Numbered from the stretch's first letter, positions 34,250 through 58,060 are shown. The stretch is DNA of 64,000 nt from Octopus vulgaris (GCA_951406725.2 OX597821.1:4898001-4962000); one strand, 5' to 3'. Numbers and translations are program-made. Notes: generated by a model from the sequence alone, not told the origin.

Positions 34250-34532
34250 ATAATCTACTGTGATATACAGTAGATCCGACTATGATTGAATTATATCTAG
34301 CTTTGTCTTCTGTACTTTATGGAAATAAATAGAATTATTAAATGGTACACATGGACTGATATTCTTATTTCCTAGCTACATATATATAGTAAATGTTTTT
34401 ATTTTTCATTCCCTTGGAGAATTTATCCTTAATTAGTGGTTTGGACTTTAGCTGTTCTTTCTAGTGTAAAGGATTCCTATGATGGAAACCTCTTAATGTG
34501 TTTAAACGTACACTGTATTTTATATGAATATA

Positions 34533-34722
34533 GGCGTAGGAGTGGCTCTGTGGTAAGTAGCTTGCTTACGAACCACATGGTTCCAGGTTCAGTCCCACTG
34601 CGTGACACCTTGGGCAATTGTCTTCTACTATAGCCTCAGGCCGACCAAAGCCTTGTGAGTGGATTTGGTAGACGGAAACTGAAAGAATCCCGCCGTATAT
34701 ATGTATATATATATATATATAT
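34533..34722 (+). mobile_element. Family B SINE, 5' half (interrupted by the PLE)
   Basis: Matches 13184-13365 and stops in the internal (TA)n. Confidence 0.9.
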
Positions 34723-34898
34723 AATAAATATTAGGGAATAAATCCAAATTTACAGGGAAAAAATCAGATTTAGGATTAAATCCAATTTTATAGTAAAATA
34801 TTATATAATATTATTAGAGACAAAACCACTATTTTGCAAAACAAACAAGGAAAGACTTAATCAATACATAAAATTTTAATAAAAAGTCAAAAAAACCG

Positions 34899-34941
34899 CC
34901 ACTACAATTGTTTCTTGTCCTGATCGACAATCTTCAGGTGG
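34899..34941 (-). ncRNA. Minimal type I hammerhead ribozyme in the PLE pseudo-LTR
   Basis: Minus strand: CCAC-CTGAAGA-TTGTC-gatcag-GACAA-GAAA-C-AATT-GTA-GTGG. Stem III is the palindrome ACAATTGT. Confidence 0.88.
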
Positions 34942-36050
34942 ACTTCCAATCTAAAATATCAATATTTTAAAATATAAAAATAATAATTTTAAAATAATTA
35001 AAGTATTAATGAAAAAATATAAATATATAATCTATATATAACCTATATATAATCCATATATAATCAATATATAAACAATATATAAATAATAAAAACTAAA
35101 CCTATCAACAATTAAATATAAAATATAAAATATAAAATATAAAACAAAACAAAAAATAAACTATATATACACCCATACACATATAACTAATTATATATAA
35201 CCATATCTAAATACATACACTAAATCACACACCTATATATATATCCCTATACATACACATAAAAACGTCTAGGCAACGATAAATAAATAAAATAGCCAAA
35301 TACTTCAACACAATACTTATTCATACTCCCTCACACACACATACAACCCACATTCCCGCTCTGGAAACGGACATCATTTAAAATCATGAATGGAGAAATG
35401 GAACAAATGGAATTAAAAATTATATTCACATGGTAAAACGAACATTACTTAAAAATTATGAATGAAACAATGCAATAAAACAACAGACATCGTAAATAGA
35501 CACAAATTACTACGAATTCCTTAACAAAACTACCATGACAAACCAAAACTCATAAAAACATATAATGATAAAATCTCCCTTTACTAAACTCTATAACATA
35601 CCTATATAGCAATCCCCCTAACCTAAACATTCACACACAAATACACACACGTAAACCACACACCCACGACATATACAAATACCCACCTCACTCACACATA
35701 CCTATACATATATATAAACCTCAATATATACTCCAAAAACCCACTCAACCCCACACAGACAAATAAACACATACATCCCCAAACCTATATAGTAAACCCA
35801 TAAACACATTCACACACAAATATACATACGTAAAACACACACCATATACATATACATACTCACTAAACTCGATATATACAACAATATTAACACACCCACA
35901 CTTATACAGACAAACAAATTATGCAACCAAAATACACACACACTCACACACAATCCCACATACATAAACACTCCAAATAAAAACAACATTATTACACATA
36001 ATACGATATATAAAATACATCGTAAGTAACCAGAATAATTAAAACTCATA

Positions 36051-39000
36051 AAAACATAAATGATAAAACCTCCCTTTACTAAACCCTATAACATACTTAT
36101 ATAGCAATCCCTTTAACCTATACATTCACACACAAATACACACACGTAAACCACACACCCATAACAAATACAAACACCCACTCACACACACCCACAAGTA
36201 CATATAAGCCTCAACATATCCACCAAACAAAATTACGTTACCAAGGAACCTAACATATGTATAAAAAGTATTCCCGCTCTGGAAACGAACATCTTTTAAA
36301 ATTATGAATGGAGAAATGGAAAAATGGAATTAAAAATAATATTCACGTGGTAAAACGAACACCACTCAAAAATTATGAATGAAATAATGCAACAAAACAA
36401 CAAACACCGCAAATAGACAAATTACTACGAATTCTTTAACAAAACTACCATGATAAACCAAAACTCATAAAAACATATAATGATAAAATCTCCCTTTGCT
36501 AAACTCTATAACAAACCTATATAGCAATCCCCCTAACCTAAACATTCACACACAAATACACACACGTAAACCACAGACCCACGACTTATACAAATACCCA
36601 CCTCACTCACACATACCTATACTAACGTATAAACCTCAATATACACCAAAAACCCTACTCCCTCCCCACACAGAAAAATTAACACATACATCCCCAAACC
36701 TATATAACAAACCCATATACACATTCACACACAAACACACATACGCAAAAACACACACACACAACATATACATATACTCCCTCACATATACGCATATACA
36801 TAATCACTAAACTCGATATATACAACAATATTTACACACCCACACTCATACAGATAAACAAACTATACAACCAAAATACGCACACACTCACACACAATCT
36901 CACATACATAAACACTCCAAAGAAAAACAACATTATTACACATAAAACGATATATAAAATACATCGTAATTAACCAGAATATCAAAAATAACAATAAGAC
37001 ATAAGGAGAAATAATATACATACAAGTCAGTTTCAAATTATGAAGTGAAATTAAATTCTAAGCCGTTAAAAAAAACCAAACCAAAATTACGTTACCATAG
37101 GAACATAACTTATGTATAAAAAGAATACGCGCCATGGAAGCAAACGTCATTTAAAATTATGAATGGAGAAATAGAATAAATGGAACTAAAAACTATATTC
37201 ACGCGGCAAACCAACACTACTCAAAAAAATTATGAATGGATTCTTTAATAAAACTACCATGATAAATTATTATATGTATTTATGAGCTTTAGCTCATCTT
37301 GGCAGTTTCAACAAACAATTCGTAGCAATCCACGTCTATTCCCGATGTCTGCCACTTTACTACATTATTCCACTCCCAATCCTAAGCAACGCTAGCCCAC
37401 CACCCGGTTACAATTCCCAATTCCATTTATTCCATTCACAATTTCAATGACGTTCGCTTCCATAGTGCTACGTATGAGCCTCAATATATGCACCGGTGAT
37501 TCGCTTCCACATCCGTGCGGATGGGTGAGAGTATGCATTGAGTGTAGTGATGGGGCTCCCTTTGCTATGCACGTTTGTACCTAAAACCATAAATGATAAA
37601 ACCTCCCTTTACTAAACCCTATAACATACTTATATAGCAATCCCTTTAACCTATACATTCACACACAAATACACACACGTAAACCACACACCCATAACAA
37701 ATACAAACACCCACCCCACTCACACACACCCACAAGTACATATAAGCCTCAACATATACACCAAACAAATTCACGTTACCAAGGAACCTAACATATGTAT
37801 AAAAAGTATACCCGCTCTGAAACGAACATCTTTTAAAATTATGAATGGAGAAATGGAAAAATGGAATTAAAAATAATATTCACGTGGTTAAACGAACACC
37901 ACTCAAAAATTATGAATGAAACAATGCAACAAAACAACAAACATCGCAAATAGACAAACTACTACGAATTCTTTAACAAAACTACCATGATAAACCAAAA
38001 CTCACAAAAACATATAATGATAAAATCTCCCTTTGCTAAACTCTATAACAAACCTATATAGCAATCCCCCTAACCTAAACATTCACACACAAATACACAC
38101 ACGTAAACCACAGACCCACGACTTATACAAATACCCACCTCACTCACACATACCTATACTAACGTATAAACCTCAATATACACCAAAAACCCACTCCTCC
38201 CCACACAGACAAATTAACACATACATCCCCAAACCTATATAACAAACCCATATACACATTCACACACAAACACACATACGCAAAACACACACACACAACA
38301 TATACATATACTCCCTCACATATACGCATATACATACTCACTAAACTCGATATATACAACAATATTTACACACCCACACTCATACAGATAAACAAACTAT
38401 ACCACCAAAATACGCACACACTCACACACAATCTCACATACATAAACACTCCAAAGAAAAACAACATTATTACACATAAAACGATATATAAAATACATCG
38501 TAATTAACCAGAATATCAAAAATAACAATATGACATAAGGAGAAATAATATACATACTTACAAGTCAGTTTCAAATTATGAAGTGAAATTAAATTCTAAG
38601 CCGTTAAAAAAACCAAACCAAAATTACGTTACCATAGGAACATAACTTATGTATAAAAAGAATACGCGCCATGGAAGCAAACGTCATTTAAAATTATGAA
38701 TGGAGAAATAGAATAAATGGAACTAAAAACTATATTCACGCGGCAAACCAACACTACTCAAAAAAATTATGAATGGATTCTTTAATAAAACTACCATGAT
38801 AAATTATTATATGTATTTATGAGCTCTAGCTCATCGTAGCAGTTTCAATAAACAACTCGCAGCAATCCACGTCTATTCCCGACGTCTGCCATTTCACTAC
38901 ACTATTCCACTCCCAATCTCAAGCAACGCTAGCCCACCACCCGGTTACAATTCCCAATTCCACCTATTCCATTCACAATTTCAACGACGTTCGCCTCCAC

Positions 39001-39119
39001 AGTGCCACGCATGAGCCTCAACATATGCACCGGTGATTCGCTTCCACATCCGTGTGGATGGGTAAGAGTATGCATTGAGTGTAGTGATGGGGCTCCCTTT
39101 GCTATGCACGTTTGTACCT
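36051..39119. repeat. Two tandem ~1.53-kb direct repeats (36051-37582, 37583-39119) inside the PLE
   Basis: Both start AAAA(C)CATAAATGATAAAACCTCCCTTTACTAAACCC and end GCTATGCACGTTTGTACCT. A further partial copy lies at ~35350-36050. Confidence 0.93.
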
Positions 39120-40234
39120 GTGTGGTAGTCTCCATGTGTATATTCGCGCACGGGTATAAATGCGGGGGGTATTCGCGCACGGCATGTGCGTGTACCCCTC
39201 ACATGTATGTGTGCATGCTTGTTGGGCTCGATATGTGCAACGGTGTGTTCGCGCCCGCATTCATGCGGATGGGTGAATTGCACAATTAAAATACGCACAC
39301 GTGTGTGTGTGCGTTTTTTGGTTGTGTAGTTTGTTTATCTGGGTGTGAGTGGGTGTGAGCGTATTGTTGTGGATGTCGAGTCTGATACGTATGTATATGA
39401 GTGTGTTTGGGGGGTTGTACGTATGTGTTGTGTGTGTGTGTTCTGCGCATGCGCGCCTGTGTATGGATGAATATATGGGGATTGCTATGTGGGTGTAATT
39501 GGGTATGGAGGGGGAGTTTTGTCATTGTATGGGTGTGGGTTTCATTTGTGATGGTGGTTTGTTGGTGATTTGTGGTATGTTCTGTATATTTGGGTTAGTT
39601 ATGTATTGTTCTTGTGTGTGTAATTGTATACATGTATTATTGGTGTGAGTGGGATTGCGCCCATTTTTGGGGATGTATGTGTTTATCTGTCCGTGTGGGG
39701 CGGGAGTGGTCCCTTGGTGCATATGTTGAGGCTCATACGTAATTTCAGGTACGCGTGAATGAAGTGGGCACTTGTATTTGTTATGGGTGTGTGTACTTTA
39801 TTATAACAGACAATACCCAAATAAAATCTGTCAATTCAACATACCAAATAAAAAACAAATAAAAAACAAAGGGATCGTAAACATTCACACATACATACAA
39901 AACTCAATATATACACCACTAAATAACACCCATCATCCATATAAATATATCCTCCAATATACATATAACAAATGCATAATAAAAATACATAATAAAATAA
40001 AATAAAAATAAAAAATATATAATTAAAGAAAATAAAAAAATCTAATATAAATTATTAAAGTTTTAACGTACCATAAACTGTTATATTAATATACATTAAA
40101 AATGAACTAATTAAAACAAAGAAATATCAACAAAGACTAACTATAAATAAAGCCTAGACTACATAACCAAATAAATATAATTATCTAAACTAAATTAAAC
40201 TAAACTAAAGTAACCTAATAGGGAACTATTAAAG

Positions 40235-42007
40235 CTATTTATCATGAAACTTATTATATAGGTAAAGTAACTTATGTCTGCATTTTATTTTGCGCTCTTC
40301 ACCAGTATTAAGTAAATTATCATACTTATAAAATAAAATTTCTTTAAACTCATTATAGCATAAATAACAACAATTAGCTCCTATAGTATATGATTTAGTT
40401 TTACAAATTATTTCCCAAATTAAACTATAATTAATATTTAGTGATTTAAGACTCCAAATGTACTTACTAAGTCCGGTTGAGTTGATTAAGTTTTTATTTT
40501 TAAAAGAATTCATATGTTGTGCGATTCTTAATTTTGAGGAAGTACTTGAGGAAGTAGAACCTATATAAACCGCTTTTGGGTAATTATTATTCTTAAAGTT
40601 ATTATCATGTAATGTAACTATACATTTATACACTACATCGTTAATATCACAATTATTATTTAATATACAATTAGATTTATCTCTACATGTACAATTAATA
40701 TAAGTCTTATCATTATTAATATTATTACCTAATAATTTCTTTTTATAAAAATTATTCAGTTTATATTTATTAAATGAAGAAATAATGTTACCTACATTAT
40801 TAGTGGTAGAATAACCTACTCCAAAATTATTAATAGAGAAAATGTTTCTATATTTACGATTATCTCTAATAAATAGTTCAATAACATCTAAAATCTCTTT
40901 AATAATATTCGTTTTTACTTGATCTCCATAAGGAACTATTAACCAAATTTTATTCTTATTAACCTTATTATTATTATCATTATTATAAATATATTTATAA
41001 TTCTTCATTTTATTAAAATTATTATCAGAATTATATCTATGTACAGCATTTAAGGAATTATTAATATTATTAATTTTATCAATATAATTATTATAATAAT
41101 TATTAAATTTATTTTTATTTTTATTATTCTTATTTGTATTATTATTATTATTATTTTTATTATTATTATTATTATTCTTATTTATATTTTTATCATTTTT
41201 ATTATTTTTATAATATCTATTATTTTTACCACTAAACCTAACAAAATTATAATTATTATTAGAAGTATCTCGAAAATTATCATTTAAATCTTTATCACTA
41301 ATATTATAAAATTTAATATTCCTATTATAACCTGCCCCTCTAAGGGCCTCATTATAATAATTAGCATGTTTATTAAAAATCTCTATATCATAAGAGAGTA
41401 ATGAAATACGTTTACTTATATTATTAATCAACGATTTTTTAATAGAAAATGGGTGATTACTATTAACATTTATATATCTAAGGTTCTCATTAAGTTTATG
41501 ATATGGTTGTGTTTTACCAGTAATAAGATTAAAATTAACATCTAAATAATTAACATTATAATTCTCCTTATATATAGTAATACTTAAACCATATCTTTTA
41601 AAGAAACTATATAGTTTTTTCTTATATACTTCTAGATTCCTATTAGTACAATTCTTTGTAACTAGTAGAAGATCGTCTCTATATAAGCCACCCTCTATCT
41701 TAAGATTTTCTAATTGGAGTTCAGATAAAAGAAAAATACCTACTAAATCAGTAGCCTGTGCAGAATCTGGTGCTCCCATAGGTATATCAAAACAATCTCT
41801 AGTATCATTCCTAGCCCATAATTTATTTTTATATTTAATTAGCGATTTCCTAGCCATTTTAATTACATTAACTTCTTCCCGTGACATACCCACTTTATTC
41901 ATTGCGAAAATAAGCGCTTTATTAAACACAATTTCATTAATAGAAGAATAATAATTATCTATATCTATTTGAATAAATTTAAAACGATTTTTATCTTTAA
42001 TATTATT
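40235..42007 (-). CDS. PLE polyprotein, N-terminally truncated: RT core, thumb, Asn-rich linker, Cys motif and GIY-YIG endonuclease
   Basis: The frame is open from 42007 to the stop at 40235 and extends upstream of the called GTG as KFIQIDIDNYYSSI (RT motif with catalytic Asp). It also contains IPMGAPDS, GLYRDD, NYLDV, CTCRDKSNCILNNNC, VVYK...YIGST...RIAQH, CYLC...E and terminal CRH. Confidence 0.93.
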   Translation of the reverse strand, partial: NNIKDKNRFKFIQIDIDNYYSSINEIVFNKALIFAMNKVGMSREEVNVIKMARKSLIKYKNKLWARNDTRDCFDIPMGAPDSAQATDLVGIFLLSELQLENLKIEGGLYRDDLLLVTKNCTNRNLEVYKKKLYSFFKRYGLSITIYKENYNVNYLDVNFNLITGKTQPYHKLNENLRYINVNSNHPFSIKKSLINNISKRISLLSYDIEIFNKHANYYNEALRGAGYNRNIKFYNISDKDLNDNFRDTSNNNYNFVRFSGKNNRYYKNNKNDKNINKNNNNNNKNNNNNNTNKNNKNKNKFNNYYNNYIDKINNINNSLNAVHRYNSDNNFNKMKNYKYIYNNDNNNKVNKNKIWLIVPYGDQVKTNIIKEILDVIELFIRDNRKYRNIFSINNFGVGYSTTNNVGNIISSFNKYKLNNFYKKKLLGNNINNDKTYINCTCRDKSNCILNNNCDINDVVYKCIVTLHDNNFKNNNYPKAVYIGSTSSSTSSKLRIAQHMNSFKNKNLINSTGLSKYIWSLKSLNINYSLIWEIICKTKSYTIGANCCYLCYNEFKEILFYKYDNLLNTGEERKIKCRHKLLYLYNKFHDK

Positions 42008-42065
42008 TTATGTATTGATTAAGTCTTTCCTTGTTTGTTTTGCAAAATAGTGGTTTTGTCTCTAA

Positions 42066-42077
<12 letters not shown>

Positions 42078-42141
<64 letters not shown>

Positions 42142-42358
42142 TGTATATGTTTGTGTGTCTGTGTTTGTCCCCCAACATCGCTTGACAACCGATGCTGGTG
42201 TGTTTACGTCCCCGTAACATAGCGCTTCGGCAAAAGAGACGGATAGAATAAGTACTAGGCTTACAAAGAATAAATCATCTGGTCGATTTGCTCGACTAAA
42301 GGCGGTGCTCCAGCATGGCCACAGTCAAATGACTGAAACAAATAAAAGAGTAAAGAGT
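42078..42358 (+). mobile_element. Family B SINE, 3' half (interrupted by the PLE)
   Basis: Resumes with (TA)(TG)n-TTTGTCCCCCAACATCGCTTGACAACCGATGCTGG...GACTGAAACAAATAAAAGAG. Confidence 0.9.
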
Positions 42359-57631: not shown

Positions 57632-58060
57632 CATAATAACAATTTAATAAATAAAACATATGCATACATACATACATATATGTACATACCTACATATATA
57701 TGTATATATACATGCATATATGAGTACAGGACACCACAAATAAACGTAGAACACAACAAGAAACGAAAACATAAAAACAAACAAGGAAACGGACTTTTTT
57801 TAACACCGAAAAAACAGAGTACAAGACAAACAATACAAGGAACATTCCCCTTCTTCAGCTGCCCCTGTTTCGACTCAATGCGTGCTCGTTATGTTCTACG
57901 TTTATTTGTGGTGTCCTGTACTCATATATGCATGTATATATACATATAGATGTAGGTATGTACATATATGTATGTATGTATGCATATGTTTTATTTATTA
58001 AATTGTTATTATATGATTGAACGCCACGCGTCGTTTTTTTATTCTCAAAGTAAGTTTTTA
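57632..58060. mobile_element. Inverted-arm plus tail footprint (PLE-like) within (TA)n
   Basis: ~57632-57755 is the near-perfect reverse complement of ~57889-58016, with an unpaired tail to 58060. Confidence 0.7.

Follow-up and report, generated by a model that had tools for sequence, protein, structure and literature searches.

Sense-strand A>G changes in the inverted repeats of an octopus Penelope-like retrotransposon family: probable A-to-I edits fixed by reverse transcription

The window analysed here, a 64,000-nt stretch of Octopus vulgaris DNA (GCA_951406725.2 OX597821.1:4898001-4962000), contains a 5′-truncated insertion of an element recognisable from its sequence as a Hydra-type Penelope-like retrotransposon. 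The sense strand of the element is the minus strand, and the inverted repeat under study lies in its 3′ UTR. The insertion extends from 34725 to 42075, both ends being approximate since they fall inside a TA repeat. The insertion point is the (TA)n tract inside a common short interspersed repeat, one half of which now lies at 34530-34730 and the other at 42070-42354; further copies of both flanks (34530-34704 and 42169-42354) are found at other places in the window. The truncated ORF (40235-42007, minus strand; 590 aa) covers the C-terminal half of the reverse transcriptase (RT), an Asn-rich linker and a GIY-YIG-type endonuclease; a Pfam scan of this 590-aa frame matched no family. An intact 840-aa frame is present in another copy of the family (L038), where the YRDD and VVY...YIG motifs were identified by eye. 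DKT stands in place of DKG (QSDKTRN in protein P0002), the linker motifs CxCX5C, CxxC and CxH read CTCRDKSNC, CYLC and CRH, respectively, CCHH is absent, and one Cys lies between the VVY and YIG motifs of the Hydra-like ORF. An N-terminal RWK motif was also looked for, and RIKWK was found there, not the exact RWK. The linker that separates RT from endonuclease includes an Asn-rich, (AAT)n-like segment (40950-41300) that recalls the N-rich inserts described for Penelope elements (PMC3846280).

The long 3′ UTR (34960-40234, minus strand) is made of direct and inverted repeats and is G/U-rich on the sense strand. It measures ~5.3 kb in the window copy and ~4 kb in unduplicated copies, and the window copy carries an internal 1.54-kb tandem duplication (36049-39119, halves 36049-37582 and 37584-39119) that is also found in copy L031 on a different contig (G000:C21). 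A candidate minimal type I hammerhead motif was recognised by inspection at 34899-34941 (minus strand). It comprises stem I (CCAC/GUGG), CUGAAGA, a 5-bp stem II, GAAAC and GUA, and is 94-100% identical across family copies; Rfam gave no hammerhead match at 34899-34941, the motif is missing from the minimum-energy fold, and the single-strand fold is not significant (z=0.29). The hammerhead-to-hammerhead unit is ~6.8 kb. At the 5′ junction lies an inverted copy (41988-42091, plus strand) of the element's 3′ terminus (34789-34892), 89.5% identical to it over 105 nt, which is the usual Penelope inverted end, and the (TA)n target with tandem and inverted ends is seen at the window junctions and in the family maps. 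The region 34733-34878 had been considered as an RT fragment; it was rejected as such, being the element's own end. Elsewhere in the window, 24000-26000 shows a strong plus-strand G/T skew (GC skew 0.41, AT skew -0.28) and is possibly a fragment of a related G/U-rich UTR, and a 128-nt inverted repeat, 98% complementary with a 124-nt spacer, is found at 57633-58012.

In the part of the clade description available (Craig et al. 2021, PMC8557442), Hydra elements are recognised by a C-terminal GIY-YIG domain, DKT, a CxCX5C linker, CxxC plus CxH, no CCHH, a hammerhead and (TA)n targets, and the octopus element resembles them in all those motifs as well as in its partial tandems and inverted ends. 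Hydra families are generally <3 kb, a tendency that is not diagnostic, whereas the octopus unit is ~6.8 kb with a 4-kb 3′ UTR built of repeats; the same portions of that paper mention neither an internal UTR hairpin nor editing. Partial tandems, an inverted pLTR, Asn-rich ORF inserts and a minimal type I hammerhead are features in common with the Penelope elements treated in the work on insertion models (Arkhipova 2013, PMC3846280; de la Pena 2020, PMC7761336).

Within the UTR, a direct unit (D) is present on the minus strand at 35355-35570 (its 3′-most copy and a possible partner of the inverted arm), at 36270-36480 (the copy pairing with the inverted arm in the predicted sense fold of 35300-37600) and, inside the duplicated block, at 37808-38017. 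The inverted arm, hereafter arm I, is the most heavily A>G-changed segment; the position given for it in the earlier note is corrected here to 37262-37468, and that of its second copy to 38799-39005 (both minus strand). A short copy of D adjoins arm I (37129-37240, duplicated at 38666-38777, minus strand) and may serve as an alternative partner. A second inverted block (39303-39793, consisting of 39303-39488 and 39614-39793; minus strand) is also A>G-enriched and is predicted to pair with 'mid' repeats, e.g. 38239-38421.

The starting observation was a 58-nt comparison of 35461-35518 with the reverse complement of 37317-37374, which was reproduced exactly: the 16 differences are 11 A/G, 4 C/T and 1 T/G, and all 15 transitions form G·U pairs on the minus strand. 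When the register is moved by 1-3 nt, the number of differences rises to 42-48. We then aligned the full-length arms locally, scoring both transition classes symmetrically. Over 35327-35588 against 37244-37499 there are 58 minus-strand G·U pairs and 6 plus-strand G·U pairs, i.e. A·C in the sense (p=9e-12), besides 167 identical positions, 20 transversions and 16 gap columns, so the two classes, which might have proved equal over the whole arm, are not. Six further arm pairings gave G·U:A·C ratios of 64:7, 61:5, 36:6, 73:7, 64:7 and 63:9, and the sum over the 37 family rows with both arms, which are not independent copies, is 1943 to 185. The bias claimed earlier therefore holds for the full arm; the wording that the repeat pairs through G·U 'only' on the sense strand is too strong, because ~10% of arm transitions are A·C. 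The two copies of arm I show 19 A/G differences within 37289-37518, and at 15 of them the second copy is the one with G. Pairings of the second inverted block (39300-39800) are mixed (57:40, 66:47, 25:68 and 19:37).

Skews as extreme as that of arm I, in either direction, occur in simple-repeat DNA, so that a binomial test alone cannot identify the mechanism and a comparison of copies is needed. Nor do folding energies settle the matter. The predicted duplex of arm I with D 35355-35570 reaches -212.7 kcal/mol in the sense and -107.8 in the antisense, and folding of both whole strands favours the sense strand as well; such a preference follows from G/U-rich composition and is not counted as independent support. 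On the element, Rfam returned only sub-threshold miRNA-hairpin matches, far below gathering scores.

Copies of the element were sought in the octopus's own 2.8-Gb genome, where the best 40 of 369 candidates were scored and 36 regions, corresponding to 38 matches outside the window, were retrieved. They were mapped on L038, 18 chimeric or paralog-mismapped alignments were dropped and 85 rows were kept. The copies split into a star-like older group (the window plus 11 loci, 25 rows) and a ladder of later lineages, groups that were defined after inspection of the data from those best 40 of 369 candidates. The 5′ part of the ORF is 98-100% identical in nearly all copies, and arm I only 83-99%, so that ages based on the divergence of such arms would come out much too high. 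Among the star copies, arm I reaches an A/G diversity of 99.8 per kb. The corresponding values are 28.7 for D1, 32.7 for D2, and 26.7 and 42.5 for the second inverted block, but only 1.7 for the ORF and 1.8 and 1.0 for UTR outside the arms; C/T diversity in arm I is 3.1. Likewise, 180 of 542 A-bearing sites are variable in the arms, where a duplex is predicted, versus 34 of 597 outside (p=3e-34), and the T/C control sites show no contrast (12/696 versus 16/939). The duplication offers the same picture within the window: 24 of the 26 transitions separating its halves are sense A/G, one of these 24 following a G; 19 lie in or beside arm I, five in or beside D and none in 36500-37260. Between the window and L031, duplex sites have G in the window and A in L031 at eight positions, the reverse at three. 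In L031/L032 (G000:C21), the arm of the upstream unit is a chimera of two arm copies, a case of recombination between arm copies.

Long hairpins can interfere with long-read sequencing, and sequencing or assembly error at the inverted repeats could in principle have produced such differences. This explanation is refuted by the observations that the bias tracks the sense strand of the element in both genomic orientations, that different units of one insertion agree with each other, and that the same spectrum appears in four other sequencing runs. In contigs of the multicopy family from those runs, the plus-strand spectrum is again dominated by T/C, with A>G at 0-3 places; the presumed-RNA runs and the two runs of unspecified kind share it, editing and copy differences not being separable in multicopy contigs.

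The base changes themselves allow the direction of mutation to be read. At A sites opposite U, A/G is variable at 38 of 75, whereas at C sites opposite G, C/U is variable at 1 of 22 (p=5e-5). There are 23 U·G columns in which D supplies the G, and for 21 of these some other copy of D still has A. The G·U pairs thus arise by A>G on both arms. With the 5′ neighbour of arm I A sites read from the partner arm, 2 of 13 sites following G are changed, compared with 64 of 84 following any other base (p=4e-5), and over all arms the rate of change with 5′ U or A exceeds that with C or G (p=7e-7). Over the whole UTR, unpaired parts included, 5′-G depletion is not significant (p=0.19). Nor is a 3′ G preference (10/12 versus 52/31, p=0.21; p=0.14-0.27 over the range of tests). 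Depletion of an upstream G is the ADAR motif of both metazoan clusters in the hyper-editing survey of Porath 2017, which gives the 3′ G preference as reduced in octopus (PMC5625713). A_deamin domains were found on four contigs of the genome, in a domain family that also covers ADAT/ADAD. Co-editing of partner arms was not specific, rho being 0.76 for predicted partners and 0.81 for a non-partner.

The earlier note had left two causes side by side, cumulative A-to-I editing and selection for an RNA duplex with little palindromy in the DNA. According to the latter, ordinary mutations would be filtered so that the duplex is kept, DNA palindromy or dsRNA sensing is lowered and A·C changes are purged. 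As the main cause this is contradicted by the data, and we consider it improbable: selection would take C>U as readily as A>G, it cannot lift diversity ~60-fold over that of the unpaired UTR, and it yields neither a 5′-neighbour rule nor repeated changes at the same sites across insertions. On its side stands a gain of C>U with rare G>A in the later lineages, described below; selection could be a genuine secondary force and may contribute to that slower drift.

Errors of the element's own RT on the sense strand, or strand-biased DNA damage, could be imagined to be commoner in a structured template and to give A>G. The UTR sense strand is G/U-rich throughout, which counts in its favour, and a structure-dependent polymerase error is compatible with the sequence evidence alone. 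Three observations nevertheless make it very unlikely: no A>G excess is seen in the ORF or in unpaired UTR, although these belong to the same molecules, a sister family has symmetric transitions, and the rate drops ~30-fold in later lineages whose ORF stays 97-100% identical. As regards that control, a related family (38% aa identity, no long repeat, 38 rows) has A/G about equal to C/T throughout. Furthermore, near-perfect inverted ends made by integration show no consistent skew (0:2, 5:1, 3:4, 1:0, 0:0, 0:0 and 6:4), and other Hydra-like families, among the matches listed, mostly have short UTRs or simple-repeat palindromes skewed both ways.

Identical sites have been changed repeatedly in separate insertions. 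Four-gamete conflicts affect 505 of 903 site pairs, including 78 of the 138 within 15 nt, and linkage is close to the permuted value (r2 0.13-0.15 versus 0.11), so the sites are near-independent. Such a pattern might also be left by recombination or template switching between A-rich and G-rich templates, or by mismatch repair of a DNA hairpin, reshuffling old differences. Chimeric arms do occur, in L032 and L036, and r2 lies slightly above the permutations in two of four distance classes. Yet the G-rich lineage itself has A at 26 of the 60 variable sites and therefore cannot be the donor, and the conflicts are as common within 15 nt as at long range. Hairpin repair predicts T>C in the partner arms, where T>C is not raised, and the first origin of the bias would be left unexplained by recombination. 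We regard this explanation, like polymerase error, as very improbable.

The changes, then, are A/G rather than C/U, confined in polarity to the sense strand, concentrated in the arms, averse to a 5′ G, recurrent at particular sites and common to the units of one insertion, and it is the editing alternative of the earlier note that they support. We conclude, with a probability of about 0.88, that the G·U pairs are ADAR A-to-I edits made on both arms and fixed as A>G by reverse transcription over several rounds.

The copies also appear to record a succession. When the partner arm is taken as outgroup at non-A/G sites, the star group matches it at five sites and the last lineage at one; on these sites and a weakly resolved tree the star group would precede the later lineages. 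Among arm I columns opposite U, 15 show G throughout the 10 star rows and a further 51 are still variable, which suggests that editing began before the burst and went on during it. Of the A·U pairs, a share of 0.32-0.44 has been converted in the star group; the later lineages stand at 0.42-0.48, a plateau of ~45%. Within-group A>G changes per 1000 arm A fall from 100 to 15 to 3, a count that takes any variable A/G site as A>G and so favours the star figure, and T>C stays flat. Over the same series, the predicted duplex loses stability (about -198, then -180, then -165 kcal/mol), and its Watson-Crick runs shorten, the longest being 9-17 bp at first, then 8 and finally 6-7 bp. ADAR action on a duplex is a self-limiting deamination, and the falling rate alongside a weakening predicted duplex fits such a process.

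One later change is of another kind. In the 5′ arms of a later lineage, C>U is found at 32 of 279 sites versus 3 of 157 (p=2e-4), which ADAR does not explain, and G>A is rare (1/115 and 5/356). The gain was observed on the sense strand of L044-L066, in the equivalent of window positions 38799-39793, with no matching G>A and no CpG preference. CpG decay was rejected as its cause, C>U affecting 8 of 39 sites before G and 28 of 139 before A, and G>A at CpG 0 of 31. It may reflect selection that preserves pairing, renewed editing at A·C mismatches or the action of a second deaminase.

Insertions with more than one unit bear on the strand that is copied. Five of the star insertions have a second unit, tandem or inverted, and their sister units have 54 of 62 G alleles in common, as opposed to 228 of 726 between non-sisters; these comparisons are not independent, and the sequence available for them lies in the 3′ arms rather than in arm I. 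The sharing implies that the edits predate integration and that both units likely stem from one RNA or cDNA. It is therefore suggestive of an origin of the units of one insertion in a single sense RNA or its cDNA, a pattern that a close unsampled parent could mimic. In addition, the coding-strand changes are A>G and not T>C, so that sense RNA is likely the template for this Penelope-like family. Arkhipova 2013 proposed an antisense template and left a sense one open (PMC3846280); compared with the insertion models given there, the polarity of the edits in the octopus family points to the sense strand.

On the ADAR reading, an internal inversion would have created a long duplex in the sense 3′ UTR RNA, and every transcript would have received an individual set of edited adenosines, in cells whose DNA is handed on to offspring. 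Insertions would then have frozen these edit patterns while rounds accumulated, as the 15 fixed and 51 variable columns may reflect, and the tandem and inverted units would have been copied from one sense RNA molecule or its cDNA. One heavily edited copy may finally have founded the later lineage. There, ~45% of the A·U pairs of arm I have been converted, Watson-Crick runs measure 6-8 bp, and the weakened duplex would now hardly be edited. A bolder version, which we offer tentatively and hold to be somewhat more doubtful than probable, is that of an ADAR-driven, self-limiting germline mutator loop. Edits would be written until a G·U-saturated hairpin escapes both editing and dsRNA surveillance and the escaped lineage takes over; the edits would act as single-molecule barcodes of tandem and inverted ends made from one sense RNA, and the loop may turn captured (TA)n into strand-polarised (TG/TA)n mosaics genome-wide.

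Several observations were made on other Hydra-like elements of the genome. At least five more such families (L097-L116) have long open frames of ~780-910 aa and young tandem or inverted copies, and L102 is a 99.9% tandem array of 3.6-kb units. In a related element, the 5′ junction bears a near-perfect 290-bp TA/TG-repeat hairpin, probably formed at integration (L112:8980-9570; 342-923 on the reverse strand). A Hydra-like family with 38% aa identity and 889 candidates (L117-L136, and L113 on the reverse strand, ~2.3 kb past the ORF stop) has a 3′ UTR of (TA)n-like purine-pyrimidine repeats in which the sense strand contains G and hardly any C (G/C counts of 62/5, 73/6 and 91/14 per 300 nt); its A/G diversity reaches 47 per kb, as against 12.5 at most for C/T. 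This UTR looks like edited, captured (TA)n, although slippage can mimic its A/G excess.

ADAR-type A>G hypermutation was reportedly described in avian retroviruses by Felder 1994 and by Hajjar and Linial 1995. A review (PMC12925331) gives A>G at nearly 50% of adenosines in an inverted repeat of these viruses. As in those viruses, the changes in the octopus family are A>G, lie in an inverted repeat and affect an element that reverse-transcribes its RNA; the avian cases are isolated viral sequences, whereas here dozens of chromosomal non-LTR copies are concerned, in which edits appear to accumulate and level off. APOBEC-edited LTR retrotransposons likewise carry a deaminase signature in genomic copies, found by copy comparison, but there the change is G>A on cDNA rather than A>G on sense RNA concentrated in a duplex (PMC4866542; Zaranek 2010, PMC2873906); the word 'ADAR' is absent from the main text of Knisbacher and Levanon (PMC4866542). 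Porath 2017 described transcriptome hyper-editing of repeats, including those of octopus, and heavily edited Penelope RNA of a lizard (PMC5625713). Clustered A-to-I changes in repeat dsRNA with upstream G depleted are common to both data sets; those edits were measured in RNA reads and are not inherited, whereas the pattern of the present family is in genomic DNA. A search of openly accessible literature, at the level of listings and abstracts, returned no account of a non-LTR family with ADAR edits fixed among its copies, and avian retroviruses are the sole precedent found for ADAR-type edits in a reverse-transcribing element.

The contribution of this locus is a family series running from burst to saturation, together with a strand read-out. 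RNA edits are normally not inherited; here they have probably turned into heritable mutations from which the RNA strand used as template can be read, and the retrotransposon family appears to hold a graded genomic record of ADAR activity, from a burst to a saturated lineage. Such a record would be a natural read-out of ADAR specificity and RNA pairing in the cells that transmit DNA. Two questions about Penelope elements, namely the template strand and the origin of pseudo-LTR tandems and inverted ends, thereby become testable by sequence.
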